Shown here: piece by piece, positions 9,733-55,910 of the stretch
Position numbering within the stretch: the stretch's first letter is position 1
Layout of the letters: each line of letters opens with the position of its first letter
Source: an uncultured Chromatiaceae bacterium
Lineage (GTDB): Bacteria; Pseudomonadota; Gammaproteobacteria; JAADHS01
DNA length: 64,000 nucleotides
Reading direction: 5' to 3'
NCBI GenBank assembly: GCA_964421045.1
Contig: CAYQVF010000005.1
Location: forward strand, 5,567 to 69,566
The notes under the pieces: generated by a model
Databases searched by the model: none
What the model was told of the DNA's origin: nothing
The model's input: only the letters and a program-made list of their open reading frames with translations
Position numbers and translations under genes: made by a program

Positions 9733-11280
9733 ATGAAAAAAACTCGACCTGTCATTTTATTAATTCTGGATGGTTGGGGTTATAGCGAAAACCGATACGG
9801 TAACGCAATTCTCGGTGCAAAAACACCCACCTGGGACAAGCTGTGGTCAAATTATCCCCATACTTTGATAAATTGTTCTGGCGCTGAAGTTGGATTGCCT
9901 AGCGATCAAATGGGCAATTCAGAAGTGGGCCACCTCAACCTGGGTGCTGGAAGAGTTATTTATCAAGAATATTCGCGTATTAACAAGGCACTTGAGGAAG
10001 GTTCTTTTTTTACAAATGACAGTCTGTGCCAAAGTATTGACCAAGCGGTAAGTCAAGACAAAGCCGTACATATACTTGGATTATTATCTCCAGGCGGGGT
10101 TCACAGTCACGAGCAGCAAATTCACGCTTTGGTTAAACTAGCGGCGGATCGAGGGGCAAAAAAACTCTATGTGCATGCTTTTTTAGATGGCAGAGACTGT
10201 GCCCCCAAAAGTGCGGCTCGCTCTCTTCAGCTCATGGAAACGGTATTTGAGCGTTTGGGGCAGGGTCAGTTCGCCTCTATTATTGGCCGGTATTACGCAA
10301 TGGATCGAGATCATCGTTGGCCAAGAATTCAGCTTGCTTATGATCTAATCACAGCAGGCATAAGCGACTATACTGCAACAACGGCGATAGCGGGTCTTGA
10401 TGCGGCCTATGAGCGAGGAGAAACGGACGAGTTTGTAAAAGCAACGCGGGTCACATCAAACAATGCTGAAACAATACGTGTTAATGATGGGGATACCGTA
10501 CTTTTTGCAAACTATCGATCAGATAGAGCCCGACAAATGACTCGCGCGTTTATTGAAAAAGAATTTACAGGTTTTACTCGTCAGGTCACACCTGAACTTT
10601 CATCATTTGTAAGTTTAACGGAATACCAGAAAGACTTTCGGTGCGTGGTTGCTTATCCGGCAACAAGTATTCGTAATGGCTTTGGAGAATATATTGCTAC
10701 AAAAGGCCTCAGACAATTGCGTATTGCTGAAACCGAAAAATATGCTCATGTCACCTTCTTTTTTAATGGCGGTGAAGAGGCGGCATATAAAGGAGAAGAT
10801 CGCATATTAGTCCCTTCACCTGATGTTGCCACCTATGACCTTGAACCCGAAATGAGTGCTCACGAGGTTACAGAGAAACTATGTACAGCGATCGCCAATA
10901 AAACCTACGATACGATTATTTGTAACTATGCGAACCCTGACATGGTGGGTCACACTGGTGATTATTCGGCCACTGTAAAAGCCATTGAGGTGATCGATCA
11001 ATGCTTGGGTATGGTACTTCAGAGCGTCATTGCGGTTGATGGCGCAATGCTGATCACCGCCGATCATGGCAACGCTGAACAATTATATGCTGATGAAAAC
11101 CGATCACCTCATACCGCTCATACGACCAACCTCGTTCCGTTGATTTATGTGGGACGTTCTGCCGAATTGGCAGCTCGCGGAACACTCGCAGATGTCGCAC
11201 CGACTTTGCTTGATTTGCTCGGGCTGGAGCAACCGGGCGAAATGAGTGGATGTTCACTGATTAAACCTCTCACCAAATAA
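9733..11280 (+). CDS. gpmI: 2,3-bisphosphoglycerate-independent phosphoglycerate mutase
   Basis: ILDGWG, QMGNSEVGH, DGRD, AETEKYAHVTFF, ADHGN. Confidence 0.97.
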   Translation: MKKTRPVILLILDGWGYSENRYGNAILGAKTPTWDKLWSNYPHTLINCSGAEVGLPSDQMGNSEVGHLNLGAGRVIYQEYSRINKALEEGSFFTNDSLCQSIDQAVSQDKAVHILGLLSPGGVHSHEQQIHALVKLAADRGAKKLYVHAFLDGRDCAPKSAARSLQLMETVFERLGQGQFASIIGRYYAMDRDHRWPRIQLAYDLITAGISDYTATTAIAGLDAAYERGETDEFVKATRVTSNNAETIRVNDGDTVLFANYRSDRARQMTRAFIEKEFTGFTRQVTPELSSFVSLTEYQKDFRCVVAYPATSIRNGFGEYIATKGLRQLRIAETEKYAHVTFFFNGGEEAAYKGEDRILVPSPDVATYDLEPEMSAHEVTEKLCTAIANKTYDTIICNYANPDMVGHTGDYSATVKAIEVIDQCLGMVLQSVIAVDGAMLITADHGNAEQLYADENRSPHTAHTTNLVPLIYVGRSAELAARGTLADVAPTLLDLLGLEQPGEMSGCSLIKPLTK

Positions 11281-11374
11281 AACTTGTATTTCAATGGCTA
11301 AACCACCTATGCTGCCAGGAGACTATTCCCGAATAGTCTCGGAGAAGACGGTAGGGTCACAGCAGGAGCAAAAA

Positions 11375-12712
11375 ATGGGAATATCAAAGCAAAGAAAATC
11401 AATCAAAAAAATTATTTATTATCTCGTAGTGGGGGTATTTTTAATAAACAGTCCAACTGTTCTCGCTGAGCGTACTGTCCCTAAATCGCCACTGCCACTT
11501 AATGAGCTGCGTGCATTTACCGAAGTTTTTGAAAAAATTAAAACGGATTACGTTGAACCCGTTGGTGATGCTTCGTTGCTTGAAGGTGCTATACGAGGCA
11601 TGCTTTCAGGATTGGACCCACATTCATCTTATTTAGATCCTGACGCATTCAAAGAGCTACAAGTTGGAACTTCTGGTGAGTTTGGTGGCCTTGGTATCGA
11701 GGTCGGGATGGAAGATGGCTTTATTAAAGTCATCGCGCCTATTGATGATACTCCTGCGCAAAAAGCAGGCATCAAATCAGGTGATTTGATTATTCGCATT
11801 AATGAAACTCCGGTAAAAGGGCTGACTTTGAACGAAGCGGTTAACCTTATGCGAGGAAAGCCGGGTAGCGAGGTGAATTTGACGGTTGTTCGAAAAGAGG
11901 CGGATAACAACCCGCTTACGTTCACTATTTCACGCGCCATCATTCAGGTTAAGGGTGTTAAATCAAGAATGCTCGAGCCAGGGTTTGCCTATATTAGAAT
12001 CACCCAATTTCAGAACCATACAGGTGAAAATGTTATTGATGCGCTCAGTAAGCTACAAAAAGAAAGTACCGATAACCTGAAAGGGCTAGTACTTGACCTG
12101 CGTAACAACCCGGGCGGCATACTAGGTGCTGCGGTTTCAGTCTCTGATGCTTTCCTTACAGAAGGCTTGATTGTGTATACCGAAGGCCGAGTGAAAGATT
12201 CTCAGCTTAGGTTTAAAGCGACGCAATCTGATTTGCTCAAAGGTGCTCCGCTCATCGTGCTTGTTAATGAAGGATCGGCATCGGCATCGGAAATCGTCGC
12301 CGGTGCTTTGCAAGACCATAAACGAGCGCTCATTATGGGAGAGCGGACTTTTGGTAAAGGATCAGTACAAACTATTTTACCGATGAATAATGGTTCTGCA
12401 CTGAAGCTGACCACTGCGCGTTACTACACCCCGGCAGGTCGATCTATTCAAGCTGAAGGCATCATACCGGATATCAAACTTGAAGATTTCAAGGTATCAA
12501 AAACCGAAAGAAATGGTTTGAGCATGTTAAAAGAGGCGGATTTGTCCAGGCATTTAGTGAAGCCTAAAAATAGCGATAATTCGACGGAGAAAACAAATGA
12601 AAAACCTTCGTTGGAAAAAAAGAAGCCAGAAATGGCCTCATTAACAGAAACAGATTATCAGCTTAGTGAAGCACTAAACTTATTAAAAGGGCTGGCTATC
12701 TTCGCACGTTAA
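11375..12712 (+). CDS. ctpA: Carboxy-terminal processing protease (S41)
   Basis: LDPHS, PDZ domain, DLRNNPGG, SASASEIVAGAL, TFGKGSVQ; RBS AGGAG before ATG 11375. Confidence 0.93.
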   Translation: MGISKQRKSIKKIIYYLVVGVFLINSPTVLAERTVPKSPLPLNELRAFTEVFEKIKTDYVEPVGDASLLEGAIRGMLSGLDPHSSYLDPDAFKELQVGTSGEFGGLGIEVGMEDGFIKVIAPIDDTPAQKAGIKSGDLIIRINETPVKGLTLNEAVNLMRGKPGSEVNLTVVRKEADNNPLTFTISRAIIQVKGVKSRMLEPGFAYIRITQFQNHTGENVIDALSKLQKESTDNLKGLVLDLRNNPGGILGAAVSVSDAFLTEGLIVYTEGRVKDSQLRFKATQSDLLKGAPLIVLVNEGSASASEIVAGALQDHKRALIMGERTFGKGSVQTILPMNNGSALKLTTARYYTPAGRSIQAEGIIPDIKLEDFKVSKTERNGLSMLKEADLSRHLVKPKNSDNSTEKTNEKPSLEKKKPEMASLTETDYQLSEALNLLKGLAIFAR

Positions 12713-12771
12713 TAGGCGAGCATCTTAGCTGAGAGTCGGTTTAGGAGCATGAGACTTTACAGGGCCTTTAC

Positions 12772-12788
12772 TTGGCGTAACTTGTGCA
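12772..12788 (+). promoter_or_regulatory. sigma-54 -24/-12 promoter, copy 1
   Basis: TTGGCGTAACTTGTGCA: GG 12774-75, 10 nt, GC 12786-87. Confidence 0.7.
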
Positions 12789-12798
12789 TTATTTGTAA

Positions 12799-12880
12799 AG
12801 TGTGACGTTTTTGTAATCTCTCAAAATCGTCATTTCTTCTTTACCCTCTCTTTTGGGGCGCGCCAGCGCCCTATTTTTTT
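12799..12880 (+). ncRNA. Candidate small regulatory RNA, copy 1
   Basis: Starts 12 nt after the -12 C; hairpin TGACG-T-TTTTG/CAAAA-T-CGTCA; C/U linker; terminator GGGCGC-GCCA-GCGCCC + T7; duplicated at 12974. Confidence 0.7.
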
Positions 12881-12947
12881 GCCTAAAAATCGGTGTACGT
12901 GTTTGAACCCGATAACCATGATTACTCTCGGTATTTAATAGTGTTTT

Positions 12948-12964
12948 TTGGCATGTACCATGCA
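12948..12964 (+). promoter_or_regulatory. sigma-54 -24/-12 promoter, copy 2
   Basis: TTGGCATGTACCATGCA: GG 12950-51, 10 nt, GC 12962-63. Confidence 0.7.
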
Positions 12965-12973
12965 TTATTGTAC

Positions 12974-13061
12974 AGTGTGACGTTTTTGTAATCTCTCGAA
13001 ATCGTCATTTCTTCTTTACCCTCCCTCTCTTTTCGGGGCGCGCCAGCGCCCCATTTTTTTT
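12974..13061 (+). ncRNA. Candidate small regulatory RNA, copy 2
   Basis: Near-identical to 12799-12880, with a longer linker and structure-compatible stem changes; terminator GGGGCGC-GCCA-GCGCCCC + T8. Confidence 0.7.
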
Positions 13062-13143
13062 CAAAAAATCTAATCTCAATAAACCAAATATCAGGTAATT
13101 GACTGAATTATAGTTAATTTTTTATGGTGGTGATGTTATTTCA

Positions 13144-13268
13144 CCTAAAAAACACGATTGATCCCGAGCGTATGCGGGAACAACGTTTACCTCCAAAAAG
13201 ATAATCACGATTTTCTACGCTACGTTATTTAAACCCCTATTTTGTGTTTTACATCGGCGTTTTTTAGG
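13144..13268. mobile_element. Family-B MITE-like element
   Basis: Terminal inverted repeats CCTAAAAAAC...GTTTTTTAGG. Confidence 0.55.
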
Positions 13269-13653
13269 CTTGATCGTAAGTATAGAGAGGGTTAAGTCAA
13301 AAAACGGAGCAAAAATGTTCAGGTTCAATGGGAGGCAAGGGTGCGTGTTTAAGGGGATAAAAGCACACAAAACAAGGGTGTAGAAAGAAAAGCGCTTGTC
13401 AAATAAATGACTGAACGCCAAAATATTGGCGATTACCCGGCAAAATTTTGTCACCCTGGTTGACTGTTACGTCCTTTCGCGACTAACAACAGGATATCGG
13501 TACCGACAAATAATTCTTTAGAAAATTTATACATTTTTTTATTTCCTGTATCTATCTCCATGGCATTATGAATTCACTCTCTGGCGTTAATGACCCTTCC
13601 AATAAGTCGTTCGATTATTAGCTGTATTGATAAGTTATGTTCTTATATTATAA

Positions 13654-13872
13654 ATACCTGTACATGGTTCAAGTGTTAACATGCAAAGCGTTAGCGTGCG
13701 CAGATACATCTTAGATTCGGTTTTTCTGATTGACGACGGCATGGATGCGCAAAAGACAACACCTCAAGAGTCGGGTATAAAGGCAGCGCAAGAGCCGTTG
13801 CAGAGTGAAAGCCGAAAATGAAGGTGTAAATATACGTAAAAAAGCCTGTAATATTAAGGCTAAATGGGTATA
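13654..13872. mobile_element. Family-A MITE-like element (degenerate)
   Basis: gttagcgtgcgcagatacatcttagattcggtttttctga core shared with 15881, 42235 and (inverted) 19625 and 34675; ends atgggtata. Confidence 0.7.
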
Positions 13873-13997
13873 TTGTGAGGGGGTGTTAAGGGTTTTACAA
13901 AAACCAGTATCTCGTCAATTCGGGATAAAATGGATGCCCTCGACCTGATCTGCCACATGTTATAAAATTTAGATCACTTCTTTAGAGGGGGGGAGGT

Positions 13998-14348
13998 ATG
14001 AGGCAAAAAGGATTAACATATACTTATATAGTCATCATTATTAATGCCTTAATGTGGATGTCACCTGTAGTAGCAGATCCCAATCTGAAAATTCTTTTTC
14101 CTGCAGATGGTGCGGTTTTCCAGGAAGGGGAGCCTATTCCTGTTAAATATGAAATCAAGCCTAACCCTGGTGGCGATCATTCTCACATTTATATTAATCA
14201 TAAGGAAGCAGGCATTTTGCGTCGCAAAAAGGCTACTTTTACTCTCAGCCCTTTGCCCGTCGGTAAGCATTCAATTTGTCTAAAGGTTGTCAATAAAGCG
14301 CATACCCCCATTGGTCAGGAAACCTGTATTAAAGTTACGCGATTGTAA
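13998..14348 (+). CDS. Secreted small beta-sandwich protein with His/Cys motifs (DUF4399-like)
   Basis: Signal peptide; DHSHIY, GKHSICLKVVNKAHTP...TCI; RBS GGAGG. Confidence 0.7.
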   Translation: MRQKGLTYTYIVIIINALMWMSPVVADPNLKILFPADGAVFQEGEPIPVKYEIKPNPGGDHSHIYINHKEAGILRRKKATFTLSPLPVGKHSICLKVVNKAHTPIGQETCIKVTRL

Positions 14349-14351
14349 ACG

Positions 14352-14765
14352 ATGCAATGGGAAAACCTCTTCTATGCGCTTACTCAGTTAGTCCATAACT
14401 TTGGTGCTCTAATGGTTGTTGGCGGCGCGTTGAGTGGATTCAAAATTCAGGTCGATAATCTGGACCTAAAGAGAAAGTTTGCCTGGTTGGTGCTGATTGG
14501 GTGGGGCGTACAAGCCTTTAGTGGTTTGTTATTTGGTGCGATCAGCCTCTATTTTTATGGCGAAACACCAGATTTACATTCAACGGCGCAGATCGCTTTA
14601 ATGATAAAATTGGTCTGCGTGGTATTAGCTATTTCTCTGGTGTTGTTTTATATAAAAAGTGCAGAAAATTGGAGCAGCAAGGGGCGTTATCGTGTTTGGT
14701 ATGGGTTAACGGGGTTGGGTGCAACGGCGTTAACGTCGGCTGCTTTTTTGCGATGGTTTTCGTAG
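14352..14765 (+). CDS. Four-TM membrane protein of unknown function
   Basis: Four hydrophobic segments; VHNFGA; tight coupling to neighbours. Confidence 0.75.
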   Translation: MQWENLFYALTQLVHNFGALMVVGGALSGFKIQVDNLDLKRKFAWLVLIGWGVQAFSGLLFGAISLYFYGETPDLHSTAQIALMIKLVCVVLAISLVLFYIKSAENWSSKGRYRVWYGLTGLGATALTSAAFLRWFS

Positions 14766-14768
14766 TTT

Positions 14769-15875
14769 ATGGGTAGAATAAAAATAAAAACCTTTGAGGA
14801 TAATGGTATACGTAGTTCGAACTACCTTCTAGTCACGCTTTTGTTATTGGGGCTAATTGGCGGCGCTGCTGCCGGTGAACACACGAATTTTCTTGGTATC
14901 AAATTGGTAGATATCCCCTCGGGTAGCTTTGAAATGGGGTCGTGTATGGTGACCGAGGGGATGCAAAAAGAAAACCGTAAACGTGTTTTTCTTGGTTTGC
15001 CTGTCGTGGGGCTTGGTTGCGGTATTTTGGATAAAAACGTAAATGACAATGAGACACCGCAGCGCACGGTAAAAATCCCGGGCTTTAAAATAGCGAACAC
15101 ACCGGTTACCGCTGCACAGTACAAAAAATACCTTAATGCGATTGGTGAGGTGGATAATAAAGACGATTGGGGGCTTTATACCGAAGAATTTAAACGGCTT
15201 AACTCTTTTGATGATAATGCACCCGTGGTACAGGTTTCATGGCACGAGGCACAGGACTTTATTCGCTGGCTGAATGAGAACAAGGCCAAAAACGACCCTT
15301 ACACGTATCGCATGCCTTCAGAGGCGGAGTGGGAGTATGCCTGCCGTGCCGGAGGTAAACAACGTTATTGTGGCAGCGATAATGTGTTTGACATTGGTTG
15401 GGTCAATCGTGAAGGAACAGAAAATCAGCGCGAAGTTGCTAGCAAAGCGCCTAATGCCTGGGGCGTATACGGTATGTCTGGCAGTATTTGGCAATGGGTG
15501 GAGGATGTCTATCACGATAATTACGTGGGTGCACCAACCGATGGCAGTGCATGGAATGCATTAAGTATGGATGACGATGAAATATTGCAGCGGGAAATCG
15601 AAGCGGTAGGTCAGTCTGCTCGCAAGGGAGAAATAAAGAAAGTCGAAGCGGCATTAACAATTGAGCGGTTGAGGTATGATGCGGGTATTAAAGATCGTCG
15701 TGGCGGACAACTCAAAAGCGAAACTCTCGCTGCACGTGTTTTGCGTGGTGGCTCTTGGCGTTTCAGCGAAAATTTTGCTCGCGCAACCTATCGTTTGGCC
15801 GGTGAGCCTGGTAATTGGTACTATGGAAACGGCTTTCGTGTTGCTGCATCTATACCGGTAGAAATTAAAAATTAA
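14769..15875 (+). CDS. FGE-sulfatase (SUMF1/EgtB/PvdO family) domain protein
   Basis: IPSGSFEMG, PVVQVSW, RMPSEAEWEYACRAG, RVLRGGSW, GFRV. Confidence 0.9.
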   Translation: MGRIKIKTFEDNGIRSSNYLLVTLLLLGLIGGAAAGEHTNFLGIKLVDIPSGSFEMGSCMVTEGMQKENRKRVFLGLPVVGLGCGILDKNVNDNETPQRTVKIPGFKIANTPVTAAQYKKYLNAIGEVDNKDDWGLYTEEFKRLNSFDDNAPVVQVSWHEAQDFIRWLNENKAKNDPYTYRMPSEAEWEYACRAGGKQRYCGSDNVFDIGWVNREGTENQREVASKAPNAWGVYGMSGSIWQWVEDVYHDNYVGAPTDGSAWNALSMDDDEILQREIEAVGQSARKGEIKKVEAALTIERLRYDAGIKDRRGGQLKSETLAARVLRGGSWRFSENFARATYRLAGEPGNWYYGNGFRVAASIPVEIKN

Positions 15876-15880
15876 GTATA

Positions 15881-16053
15881 TATACCCATGGTGTTTTAAT
15901 TTAGATGTTAGCGCGCGCAGATGCGCCTTAGATTCGGTTTTTCTGATTGAAGAAAAATAAAAAATTAGGCGCAGCTATGCGTGAAAGCGCCCGCGCCTAA
16001 TTTTTTATGCAACTATAGGGTTAATGCCGGGTTTTCAAATATGATGGAGATAT
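15881..16053. mobile_element. Family-A MITE-like element
   Basis: TATACCCATGGTGTTTTAATTTAGATGTTAGCG left end and shared core; degenerate right end. Confidence 0.75.
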
Positions 16054-16070
16054 CACAAAGGAGGTAAGCA

Positions 16071-16901
16071 TTGTTACCGTTAACACCGCTTCATTATTCC
16101 ATTAACAAGTTAGCTGTCGCACTTATATTTATCGCTTATGTGTTTACACCAACCGTGAGTGCTGAAGAATTCACCAATTTTTTAGGAATGAAATTTGTCG
16201 AGATCCCAGGTGGTAGTTTTAAAATGGGAGCGGCCTCGAAAACGTTTGACGTGAACCCCAATGAATTACCGCAACACACCGTCGAGGTCTCATCCTTTCA
16301 AATTATGTCGACGGAAGTAACCCTGGCGCAGTATAAACGCTACATTATCGAATCAAGTATGATCAATATTCTTAAGGACGAATTTATGAAAGCTAATGGG
16401 CATGACGATAATGCTCCGGTCGTATTCGTCTCATGGACAGATACCAGCTACTTCTTGCATTGGTTAAATCAAAACAAGCCGGATAGTGATAGGGGAGAGT
16501 ACATGTTGCCTACTGAGGCTGAATGGGAATACGCCTGTCGCGCTGGCGAAAATAATCTTTATTGTGGCAGAGGAACAGCGAGTGTCGTCGCCTGGTATTC
16601 ATCGAAAAGCCTTGCTTACCAACAACCCGTGGCGCAAAAAAAGGCAAATATATTTGGGTTATATGACATGAGTGGTAATGCACGCGAGTGGGTCAAGGAT
16701 TGTTATCATGCCAACTATGAAGCCGCGCCCACAGACGGTCGGGAATGGACTCATGATTGCCACGTTGGCAAGCGTGTTGTTCGCGGTGGTTCGTGGGACG
16801 AAGACCTAGAAGCTTCTCGCGCCACTGACCGTCTTATGGCGAGCGTTAACAACCGCACTTCGTCTGTTGGTTTTCGTGTGGTGCGAAAAGCGTTAAGGTA
16901 G
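16071..16901 (+). CDS. FGE-sulfatase domain protein, paralog 2
   Basis: IPGGSFKMG, LPTEAEWEYACRAG, GLYDMSGNAREW, RGGSW, GFRV; RBS GGAGG, TTG start. Confidence 0.9.
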   Translation: MLPLTPLHYSINKLAVALIFIAYVFTPTVSAEEFTNFLGMKFVEIPGGSFKMGAASKTFDVNPNELPQHTVEVSSFQIMSTEVTLAQYKRYIIESSMINILKDEFMKANGHDDNAPVVFVSWTDTSYFLHWLNQNKPDSDRGEYMLPTEAEWEYACRAGENNLYCGRGTASVVAWYSSKSLAYQQPVAQKKANIFGLYDMSGNAREWVKDCYHANYEAAPTDGREWTHDCHVGKRVVRGGSWDEDLEASRATDRLMASVNNRTSSVGFRVVRKALR

Positions 16902-55399: not shown

Positions 55400-55475
<76 letters not shown>

Positions 55476-55484
55476 ATTCTCAAA

Positions 55485-55614
55485 TATGCCTGTGGCGTTT
55501 GAGATTTAGGTGTTAGTGTGAATCCTATTTATTTCATGGTAAGGTGAAATGACGAGGTGTAGTCTGCCATTGAAGAGGGCGTGCAATTAAATCTAAATCT
55601 CAGGCATGGGTATA
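55485..55614. mobile_element. Family-A element in the tRNA spacer
   Basis: tatgcctgtggcgtttgagatttaggtgtt...aatctaaatctcaggcatGGGTATA. Confidence 0.75.
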
Positions 55615-55636
55615 GGTTAGTAAACTGGTGGTACTG

Positions 55637-55710
55637 GGCTGGGTGGCAGAGTGGCTATGCAGCGGCCTGCAAAGCCGTGGACGCCGGTTCGATTCCGGCC
55701 CCAGCCTCCA
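55637..55710 (+). tRNA. tRNA-Cys(GCA)
   Basis: GGCTGGG...CTGCAAA...GGTTCGATTCC...CCAGCCTCCA. Confidence 0.97.
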
Positions 55711-55823
55711 ATCACTCGTAGCGTCACCTCGTGTAATTTATCGATCATTGTCTATTGTTTAGGGTTCTTTCTCACGGATAGAAACAAGCAAGAGGGTCTA
55801 TTTTAACAGCCATCACCTGCTAT

Positions 55824-55910
55824 GCCCGGGTGGCGAAATTGGTAGACGCAAGGGACTTAAAATCCCTCGGAGGAAACTCCGTGCCGGTTCGATTCCGGCC
55901 CCGGGCACCA
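55824..55910 (+). tRNA. tRNA-Leu(TAA)
   Basis: GCCCGGG...CTTAAAA, long variable arm, CCGGGCACCA. Confidence 0.97.

Follow-up and report, generated by a model that had tools for sequence, protein, structure and literature searches.

To our knowledge, few small RNAs (sRNAs) that depend on sigma-54 have been characterized, namely Qrr, GlmY/Z, CrcZ/Y, NrsZ, NfiS and GlnZ (a product of a 3′ untranslated region, 3′UTR), all of them from cultured model bacteria. The Qrr RNAs of Vibrio are Hfq-type sRNAs with four stem-loops, the sigma-54 promoter of glmY is activated by GlrR, and PrrF1 and PrrF2 of Pseudomonas, which are Fur-repressed and sigma-70-dependent, are near-identical sRNA genes in tandem, both equipped with a separate promoter and terminator. 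In the parts of the literature on which we draw, Qrr is described as being controlled by LuxO-P and sigma-54 and as repressing at the ribosome-binding site (RBS) (PMC13501541; 10.1101/2021.07.01.450815), NrsZ of Pseudomonas aeruginosa as RpoN-dependent and induced by NtrB/NtrC under nitrogen limitation (PMC4253122; PMC9731577), and the GlmY/GlmZ/RapZ circuit of Enterobacteriaceae as one in which GlmY is a protein decoy and GlmZ activates glmS (PMC7073468). Here, we analyze a tandem pair of candidate sRNA genes in a 64,000-nucleotide stretch of DNA (hereafter the window) from an uncultured Chromatiaceae bacterium (GenBank assembly GCA_964421045.1, contig CAYQVF010000005.1, positions 5,567 to 69,566). 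We propose, with a probability of about 0.75, that these genes specify sigma-54-dependent and probably Hfq-assisted sibling sRNAs, which would base-pair by an anti-Shine-Dalgarno mechanism and which belong to an unannotated family.

The window sequence contains, on its forward strand, two direct-repeat units in tandem (12772-12880 and 12948-13061), each opening with a promoter box of the form TTGGC-N8-TGCA in which the spacing GG-N10-GC is exact (Table 1). The 8-nt stretch from TTGGC to TGCA is unlike between the two copies, and box 2 agrees with the consensus at six of the seven positions outside GG/GC in a genome-wide scan for sigma-54 promoters. The RNA start is predicted ~11 nt past the box in both units. 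A repeat search returned a direct repeat of 59 nt with 95% identity (12793-12851 and 12968-13026; spacing 175) and, over the terminators, a second one of 38 nt (87%, spacing 180). The original prediction, made from the letters of the window, had described the two units and their GG-N10-GC boxes with these coordinates and this anatomy; it had also placed the return of near-identity between the copies at the predicted +1, which needs correcting, since identity resumes already at the −12 element (TGCATTATT) and a 1-nt indel lies ahead of the start.

Both RNAs consist of a 5′ hairpin with the loop UAAUCUCU, an unpaired C/U-rich linker (20 nt in copy 1, 26 nt in copy 2) and a GC-rich terminator ending in U7-8; the linker of copy 2 is 5 nt longer than that of copy 1 (CCCUCCCUCUCU). 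The minimum free energy (MFE) is −26.5 kcal/mol for copy 1 (z = −6.35) and −27.6 kcal/mol for copy 2 (z = −6.08), and none of 200 shuffled sequences folds as well. A terminator scan flags both 3′ hairpins, each with seven to eight GC-rich pairs and U7-8, and in both RNAs the MFE and centroid folds leave the linker single-stranded. Where the stems of the two copies differ, pairing is kept (U-A versus U-G in the hairpin, G-U versus G-C at the base of the terminator). Fold statistics and terminator scan are thus in agreement with the hairpin-linker-terminator structure, and with the structure-compatible stem differences, that had been read from the sequence by eye. Each unit therefore appears to be a gene in its own right, with a promoter and a Rho-independent terminator whose U-tail has at least six residues, a layout known from Hfq-type sRNAs. 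The exposed conserved seed between the 5′ hairpin and the U-tailed terminator would suit an RNA acting in trans with the help of Hfq, as the original prediction had suggested from the promoter, the terminator and the single-stranded linker. We consider it very probable that the units are expressed as sRNAs.

If the two copies were parts of a mobile repeat, further copies dispersed in the genome would be expected, but a BLAST search with unit 1 of the 3.24-Mb, 146-contig assembly returned, at E < 0.2, just the two tandem copies. As for known RNA families, a scan of the whole window with Rfam 15 at gathering scores gave three transfer RNAs (tRNAs) alone and nothing at the sRNA locus. When the region 12650-13250 was scanned at E up to 10, only sub-threshold noise was seen (snoR74, TarB, AniS, mmgR and skipping-rope), with scores far from gathering for TarB (21.6 versus 80 bits), AniS (20 versus 50) and mmgR (19 versus 41). 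The models of Qrr, PrrF, GlmY/Z and NrsZ match neither at gathering score in the window nor at E up to 10 in 12650-13250, and in none of 20 related loci of other genomes is there an Rfam match at the RNA. A literature search, by name and not by sequence and with supplements outside its scope, found no description of the family. The pair thus represents an RNA family that is so far without annotation, new in itself but of a known kind; neither a strong Rfam match nor many dispersed copies, which the original prediction had named as findings that would speak against it, came to light. The three tRNA genes themselves lie in a row at 55400-55907 (Rfam tRNA, 69.9, 64.0 and 60.2 bits).

Relatives of the pair were found by sequence and by RNA models, the scans with the latter covering ~700 genomes in all. 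The order to which the window's genome (G000) belongs is represented by five species genomes in our collection. In this order, a sister species of the same genus (G001) also has the tandem pair, as DNA search and exact-pattern scans showed, and single copies were found in two other genomes (G002 and G003) and on a metagenome contig (L018). The box of these single copies, TTGGCAT/C-N5-CTGCA, is nearer the sigma-54 consensus, and the RNA starts at the equivalent place. A covariance model built from the RNA alone, promoter excluded (R1), matches in four of the five genomes, and it revealed a third, divergent paralog in the window's genome (locus L025, contig C120:477-560, or 448-560 with its box, forward strand). 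The paralog stands behind a perfect TGGCACgcacaTTGCT box 11 nt ahead; it is again built of hairpin, linker and terminator, and stretches rich in C and U occur in its linker as well as in its hairpin loop (CCCUCUCCCUCCCC). A sample of 151 genomes of the class yielded one more believable R1 match (G035), and 10 of the 12 genomes of the order of G035 (hereafter the second order) were matched. All but one of the 11 matches in the second order come with TGGCA[CT]-N5-NTGC, its GG 19-25 nt (mostly 24) before the start of the match.

A second covariance model, again with the promoter excluded and made from 18 sequences (R2), added the fifth genome of the window's order (G004) and a second paralog in G002 (L058), which is similar to the C120 paralog and lies behind TGGTACgattcATGCA. 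In the class sample, it added three more families with the same box (G143, G071 and G088), corresponding to three of the nine new loci inspected; the other six (L042-L047), which have no sigma-54 box, were set aside. Two of these six are identical CU-rich terminator-proximal elements 2 kb apart on contig C2 of G069 (L043 and L047, 300189-300261 and 302154-302226); they immediately follow coding sequence, have no sigma-54 box and are possibly 3′UTR-derived RNAs of duplicated genes. A third model (R3) included the promoter and finds sigma-54 promoters by construction. At E up to 0.01, it matched 21 of the 151 genomes in the class sample, with a believable hairpin-linker-terminator RNA behind the box in seven more families (G115, G047, G150, G151, G121, G098 and G022), which are candidates only, since the model contains the promoter. 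Among 150 other genomes of a species-weighted phylum sample, two were matched at E up to 0.001 (G176 and G274), both weakly.

A number of matches were rejected. The R3 match of G075 is a fliE promoter adjoining the gene of an enhancer-binding protein, those of G057 (two) and G137 were unconvincing, and other R3 matches were terminator-only (G036, G090 and a second match in G115) or fell on repeat loci already rejected (G044, G054 and G069). L017 is a chance 21-mer, L035 in the second order a chance match inside coding sequence, and the matches in G073 and the unpublished genome G144 have neither promoter nor terminator; L059 and L060 were rejected as family members as well, and a match of 23 nt alone in G026 (L013) was left out of the family. 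By the accepted sequences, the family spans at least five family-level lineages in several gammaproteobacterial orders, and the tandem duplication is specific to the window's genus. Most carrier lineages are known only as metagenome-assembled genomes, and DNA of the window's locus was found in hydrothermal-vent metagenomes, among others. No RNA run was listed among the sequencing runs that contain the locus, a result that speaks neither for nor against expression.

Alignment of the boxes shows that T-GGC-A and TGC are invariant and at fixed spacing in 21 of 21 accepted sequences, while five spacer positions vary freely. Since R1 and R2 contained no promoter, this conservation is independent evidence of function. 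The stems are also maintained. In a model-fitted alignment of 18 sequences, 16 of them distinct (A3), 99.2% of the cells are paired and 14 of the 17 stem pairs change on both sides, RNAalifold scores 11 of 14 pairs as compensatory, none of 500 shuffles reaches any of five measures, and sliding of the 3′ partners lowers pairing to 33-54%, although these covariation counts are inflated by the fitting of the alignment to the model and by the relatedness of the sequences. The changes are plain in the raw sequences, where the terminator stem GGGGCGC/GCGCCCC becomes GGGGUGC/GCACCCC and the hairpin stem GACG/CGUC becomes GUCAC/GUGAC. Hence, the two expectations that had been set for homologs, a preserved GG-N10-GC box and preserved stems, hold across genera, families and orders, the former despite a varying spacer and the latter by compensatory changes.

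The most conserved part of the RNA is the linker. In the window's order, UCGUCAUUUCUUCUUUACCCUC is invariant in seven of seven sequences, the invariant stretch measuring ~18 to at least 22 nt with the core CAUUUCUUCUUUACCCUC, and the linker core CCUCCC is kept across families. Between the window's genome and the sister species, identity reaches 98.8% for sRNA1 and 98.9% for sRNA2, compared with 85.2% before unit 1, 83.8% in the spacer and 51-74% downstream, which indicates purifying selection on an RNA body much more strongly constrained than its flanks. In contigs of a related strain (run X7), 27 differences are listed in 12633-12784 and none in 12785-12884, although the contig has 29 differences in total and the two that are not listed could lie in the latter interval. 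The contig of this strain diverges completely past 13152. In yet another organism, seen in a contig of run X6, a near-copy of the RNA is linked to a TGGCATAGCTTATGCA box.

The genome harbors one copy of rpoN (contig C13), one copy of hfq (contig C54) and nine full-length enhancer-binding proteins, eight of which carry GAFTGA or GSFTGA. Together with GG and GC exactly 10 nt apart in a TGGCA/TGC context, this marks the units as putative sigma-54 genes. Above the NCBIfam cut-offs, NtrC and two PEP-CTERM-box regulators could be named among the nine; sub-threshold matches and gene neighbors name the others as a GlrR-like protein (on contig C9), an NtrX-like protein, a FleQ/FleR-like pair, a PilR-like protein and one protein without receiver domain (on contig C4). 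Two genes upstream of the GlrR-like gene are sized like glrK and glrL, names that come from size only. A simple scan found other good intergenic sigma-54 promoters in the genome, and TGGCAC-N5-TTGCT (TGGCACactagTTGCT, C1:28731, forward strand) lies 128 nt before a glnA-like gene. The product of this gene has an FDGSS motif, which we take to be typical of type I glutamine synthetases, and the gene is followed by a 416-aa open reading frame (ORF), itself unnamed, in the usual place of ntrB, and then by ntrC. No Escherichia coli-type NtrC site was found in the 330 nt (coding) upstream of the glnA promoter, and the site that NtrC recognizes in this organism may not have the textbook form. Because the organism's own glnA promoter is also without a canonical site, the absence of such a site at the sRNAs says little.

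An activator common to the family must be present wherever the RNA is. By this test, NtrC is the only GAFTGA-bearing protein with an ortholog in all eight carrier genomes inspected, the orthologs in G035, G143, G088, G150, G022, G098 and G047 being 69-72% identical to that of the window's genome; in G150, a single contig of 2.0 Mb, it is among just four enhancer-binding proteins. Orthologs of the GlrR-like protein occur in eight of eight high-scoring carrier families and in ~32 of 150 sampled genomes (counting the unpublished G043 and G144), and they are absent from four weaker candidate carriers. Three other proteins were discarded as common activators: the NtrX-like protein, which is without GAFTGA; the receiver-less protein, which has orthologs in just 10 of the 150 genomes sampled and is missing from G035 and G143; and PrsR, which is absent from G143. 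From these distributions, NtrC is a tentative choice of activator and the GlrR-like protein a rather unlikely one, with what remains going to other proteins or to different activators in different lineages. At distances of up to 300 nt from family members, the heptamer TTGACGC/GCGTCAA is enriched ~8-fold (14 occurrences in 13.8 kb versus 6 in 48.6 kb); it is absent near the window's copies, and no extended motif surrounds it.

How the RNAs could act is suggested by the linker. Each unit would be an independent sibling gene, transcribed by sigma-54 polymerase after activation by an enhancer-binding protein and ending at its own intrinsic terminator. The 5′ hairpin would probably protect the 5′ end, and the U-tail of the terminator would offer Hfq its usual handle. 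The seed holds the anti-Shine-Dalgarno core CCUCC, and the complement of its invariant part reads GAGGG-N10-AUG; we take the linker to resemble the anti-Shine-Dalgarno end of 16S ribosomal RNA. Because this complement looks like an RBS with its start codon, we infer repression by RBS occlusion: the pyrimidine-rich linker would pair with the purine-rich RBS of target mRNAs, which would block translation initiation and, as a rule, lower mRNA stability. We find an anti-Shine-Dalgarno mechanism somewhat more probable than not. As for candidate targets, the best ORF-start site in a crude duplex screen (offset 0 in the gene call, −26.2 kcal/mol) belongs to the 116-aa ORF at 13998 in the window, which to the eye has a hydrophobic N terminus resembling a signal peptide. 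The duplex predicted at its RBS amounts to −26.0 kcal/mol in the window's genome and −24.9 kcal/mol for the ortholog of the sister species. A possible pairing site for copy 1, a lead only, lies at 13284 (−17.8 kcal/mol); its AGAGAGGGTT is kept in a conserved block (~13270-13340) in both species, and the genome, counted over both strands, contains this 9-mer 12 times. One further candidate for the seed complement, with three mismatches, precedes an ORF that resembles htpX by eye. Matches of the linker to the genome in a BLAST search are of 13 nt at most.

Several results weigh against our proposal. The +1, the length and the expression of both RNAs are predictions, the first T of the canonical −12 TTGC is a T in 1 of 21 sequences, and the covariation counts are inflated, as said above. 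The duplex screen, which scored 2,698 crude ORFs at 16,072 candidate starts, brought out no coherent target set and was dominated by G-rich runs. When up to three mismatches are allowed, sequences complementary to the invariant seed are about as frequent in G000-G003 as matches to a reversed-pattern control, and the same holds for the second-order complement GTGGGAGGTT in five genomes of that order, where all nine non-self matches look intragenic. In 20 upstream regions, patterns of E. coli-type NtrC, GlrR, NifA and LuxO sites gave nothing consistent, and a palindrome and k-mer screen of the upstream regions detected no shared activator site. Finally, the argument for NtrC assumes a single conserved activator and leans on four weaker members found with the promoter model.

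Part of this could also be explained by genuine sigma-54 transcripts that act by titration, whether as a pyrimidine-rich decoy (for ribosomal protein S1, for example), by ribosome binding or as an RNA sponge. The top conserved element is indeed the short and generic CCUCCC rather than a long specific seed, no specific target has emerged, and multiple copies would suit a decoy. Known decoys such as CsrB/RsmZ and CrcZ, however, carry many repeated motifs, whereas the RNAs of this family expose one motif each, or two in the C120 type. An invariance of 18-22 nt in the linker within the order also exceeds what a short protein-binding motif needs, and the U-tailed terminator is that of Hfq-type base-pairing RNAs, so that we regard titration as improbable.

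That the boxes might drive downstream protein genes, with the presumed sRNAs being 5′ leaders that contain an attenuator, is a reading invited by the same-strand DJ-1/PfpI gene that follows within a few hundred nt in G002, G003 and L018, and by the same-strand genes from 13998 onward in the window. It founders on gene order in other lineages, as the next gene converges on the RNA in all 10 second-order members, G071 and G088, which leaves nothing to attenuate. In the window, two complete tandem units precede a 940-nt stretch of low conservation, both units end in a strong terminator (seven to eight GC-rich pairs and U7-8), and neither the MFE nor the centroid structures contain an alternative anti-terminator fold; leaders of this kind are therefore highly unlikely. 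Scarcely credible, finally, is that there are no genes at all, but only duplicated terminator or intergenic sequence behind ctpA with a chance likeness to sigma-54 promoters. TTGGC-N8-TGCW does occur four more times in the window (six matches in total versus 1.64 expected, a number reached by 1 of 100 shuffles), and the −12 element departs from TTGC. Chance would nevertheless have had to place the box at a fixed distance in 21 of 21 relatives that were found without it, in at least five families and in unrelated contexts, and to produce an RNA body far more constrained than its flanks and two stems that both covary. Base-pairing sibling sRNAs with promoters of their own remain the reading that we favor.

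The genomic setting of the RNA changes from lineage to lineage. In the window's order, it follows ctpA or ctpA-yibQ, with the same neighborhood in G002, and in G004 the sequence just ahead of the promoter resembles, by eye, the 3′ end of ctpA. In the second order, phoB is transcribed away from the RNA and arfB or cysS toward it, and other families have different neighbors, pmbA and a ZupT-like transporter. Copies had been expected downstream of ctpA, which is what we found in the window's own order, but not beyond it, where the contexts are others. Since the neighbors differ between lineages and converge on the RNA in the second order, the sRNA is best viewed as a stand-alone gene and not as a leader. 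The intergenic region shared by phoB and the sRNA in the second order (L026, L030-L038) contains conserved TGTTACA-N4-TGTGACA direct repeats, which look to us like Pho boxes for the divergent phoB (in the 11-bp direct-repeat form). In the window, no convincing ORF is found in the ~940 nt after the pair (13062-13997), where identity to the sister species is 51-74%; two small ORFs without Pfam family (116 and 137 aa) and then two proteins with FGE-sulfatase (SUMF1-like) domains follow at 13998-16901. The spacer between the units shares a 13-mer, CATGATTACTCTC (12918-12930, just 5′ of promoter 2), with the inside of the C120 paralog RNA (L025, ~517-529), and it may be a remnant of an older sRNA copy.

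Table 1. Coordinates of the sRNA units and of surrounding features in the window
Feature	Position	Strand	Basis or remark
Sigma-54-type promoter, copy 1, TTGGCgtaacttgTGCA	12772-12788	+	Sequence, pattern statistics, box conservation in 21/21 aligned members
Parts of box 1	TTGGC 12772-12776 (GG 12774-5); TGCA 12785-12788 (GC 12786-7)	+	
sRNA copy 1, ~82 nt (predicted)	12799-12880	+	Fold, terminator scan, R1 match 104.2 bits, 81/82 identical in sister species
Parts of copy 1	5′ hairpin 12802-12833; C/U linker (seed) 12834-12853; terminator hairpin 12854-12873; U-tail 12874-12880		
Inter-unit spacer, poorly conserved	12881-12947	+	83.8% identity to sister species; many differences in strain of run X7
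Sigma-54-type promoter, copy 2, TTGGCatgtaccaTGCA	12948-12964	+	Sequence, pattern statistics, box conservation
Parts of box 2	TTGGC 12948-12952 (GG 12950-1); TGCA 12961-12964 (GC 12962-3)	+	
sRNA copy 2, ~88 nt (predicted)	12974-13061	+	Fold, terminator scan, R1 match 106.2 bits, 87/88 identical in sister species
Parts of copy 2	5′ hairpin 12977-13008; linker 13009-13034; terminator 13035-13052; U-tail to 13061		
gpmI	9733-11280		Upstream of ctpA
ctpA, S41 C-terminal processing protease with PDZ domain	11294-12712	+	Pfam Peptidase_S41 and PDZ
AGAGAGGGTTAAG, complementary to copy 1 linker, possible pairing site (lead only)	13284-13296	+	13-nt inverted repeat, 92% complementary
116-aa ORF, candidate target only, RBS AGAGGGGGGGAGG (very G-rich)	13998-14348	+	Duplex screen; no Pfam match

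With its clean promoter signature, its strong covariation and its occurrence in at least five family-level lineages, this is a well-supported new sRNA family. It could enter Rfam and would then improve the annotation of genomes from poorly studied lineages, most of which are known only from metagenome-assembled genomes. The promoter and a candidate activator, placed in a heterologous host, would make a simple test bed for learning which signal is routed via sigma-54 into post-transcriptional control. Tentatively, we picture a single conserved regulon under an enhancer-binding protein (NtrC or GlrK/GlrR-like) in deep-branching, largely uncultured Gammaproteobacteria, with this widespread family as its non-coding arm; the seed would dampen the translation of mRNAs with a strong RBS, and dosage would be tuned by duplication of the siblings. 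If so, organisms from hydrothermal-vent metagenomes would be among the carriers, and damping would set in when the signal of the activator is on.

The kind of mechanism is familiar, and is not a new one, as is clear when the RNAs are set beside described systems, none of which matches them at the level of Rfam models. AniS of Neisseria has the same succession of 5′ hairpin, CU-rich stretch (CCUCU) and terminator, and cmscan aligns its model along the full length of both copies, but the scores of 20.2 and 19.7 bits (E = 0.58 and 0.74) fall well short of the 50 required for gathering, and the resemblance is one of layout only. PrrF1/PrrF2, whose model finds no match here, share the tandem arrangement. 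Like GlmY/GlmZ, the window's genome has a homologous sRNA pair together with a GlrR-like protein, whose orthologs co-occur with the high-scoring members. This protein, however, scores 576.7 bits where the GlrR cut-off is 763, TGTC-N10-GACA is absent upstream of the RNAs in the window's order, and the near-matches in the second order look like the phoB direct repeats; nor, in the part of the GlmY/GlmZ literature on which we draw, does either RNA act by an anti-Shine-Dalgarno seed. NrsZ is the closest system in its possible input, with the same regulatory logic if NtrC is the activator here. It is longer and is processed, and it lies downstream of ntrBC in what we cite of its description (PMC9731577), whereas the present sRNAs are on contigs C5 and C120 and ntrC is on C1. 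The differences from Qrr concern the fold (two stem-loops instead of four, with nothing recognized by the Rfam model at E up to 10), the gene arrangement (tandem here, dispersed for Qrr) and the activator, as the best of the nine enhancer-binding proteins reaches 359.8 bits against a LuxO NCBIfam cut-off of 800, so that there is no LuxO here, and no consistent LuxO-type site precedes the sRNAs in the 20 upstream regions. In working principle, nevertheless, it is Qrr1-5 of Vibrio that come closest: sibling copies of a short RNA (~100 nt), each with a sigma-54 promoter and a terminator of its own.

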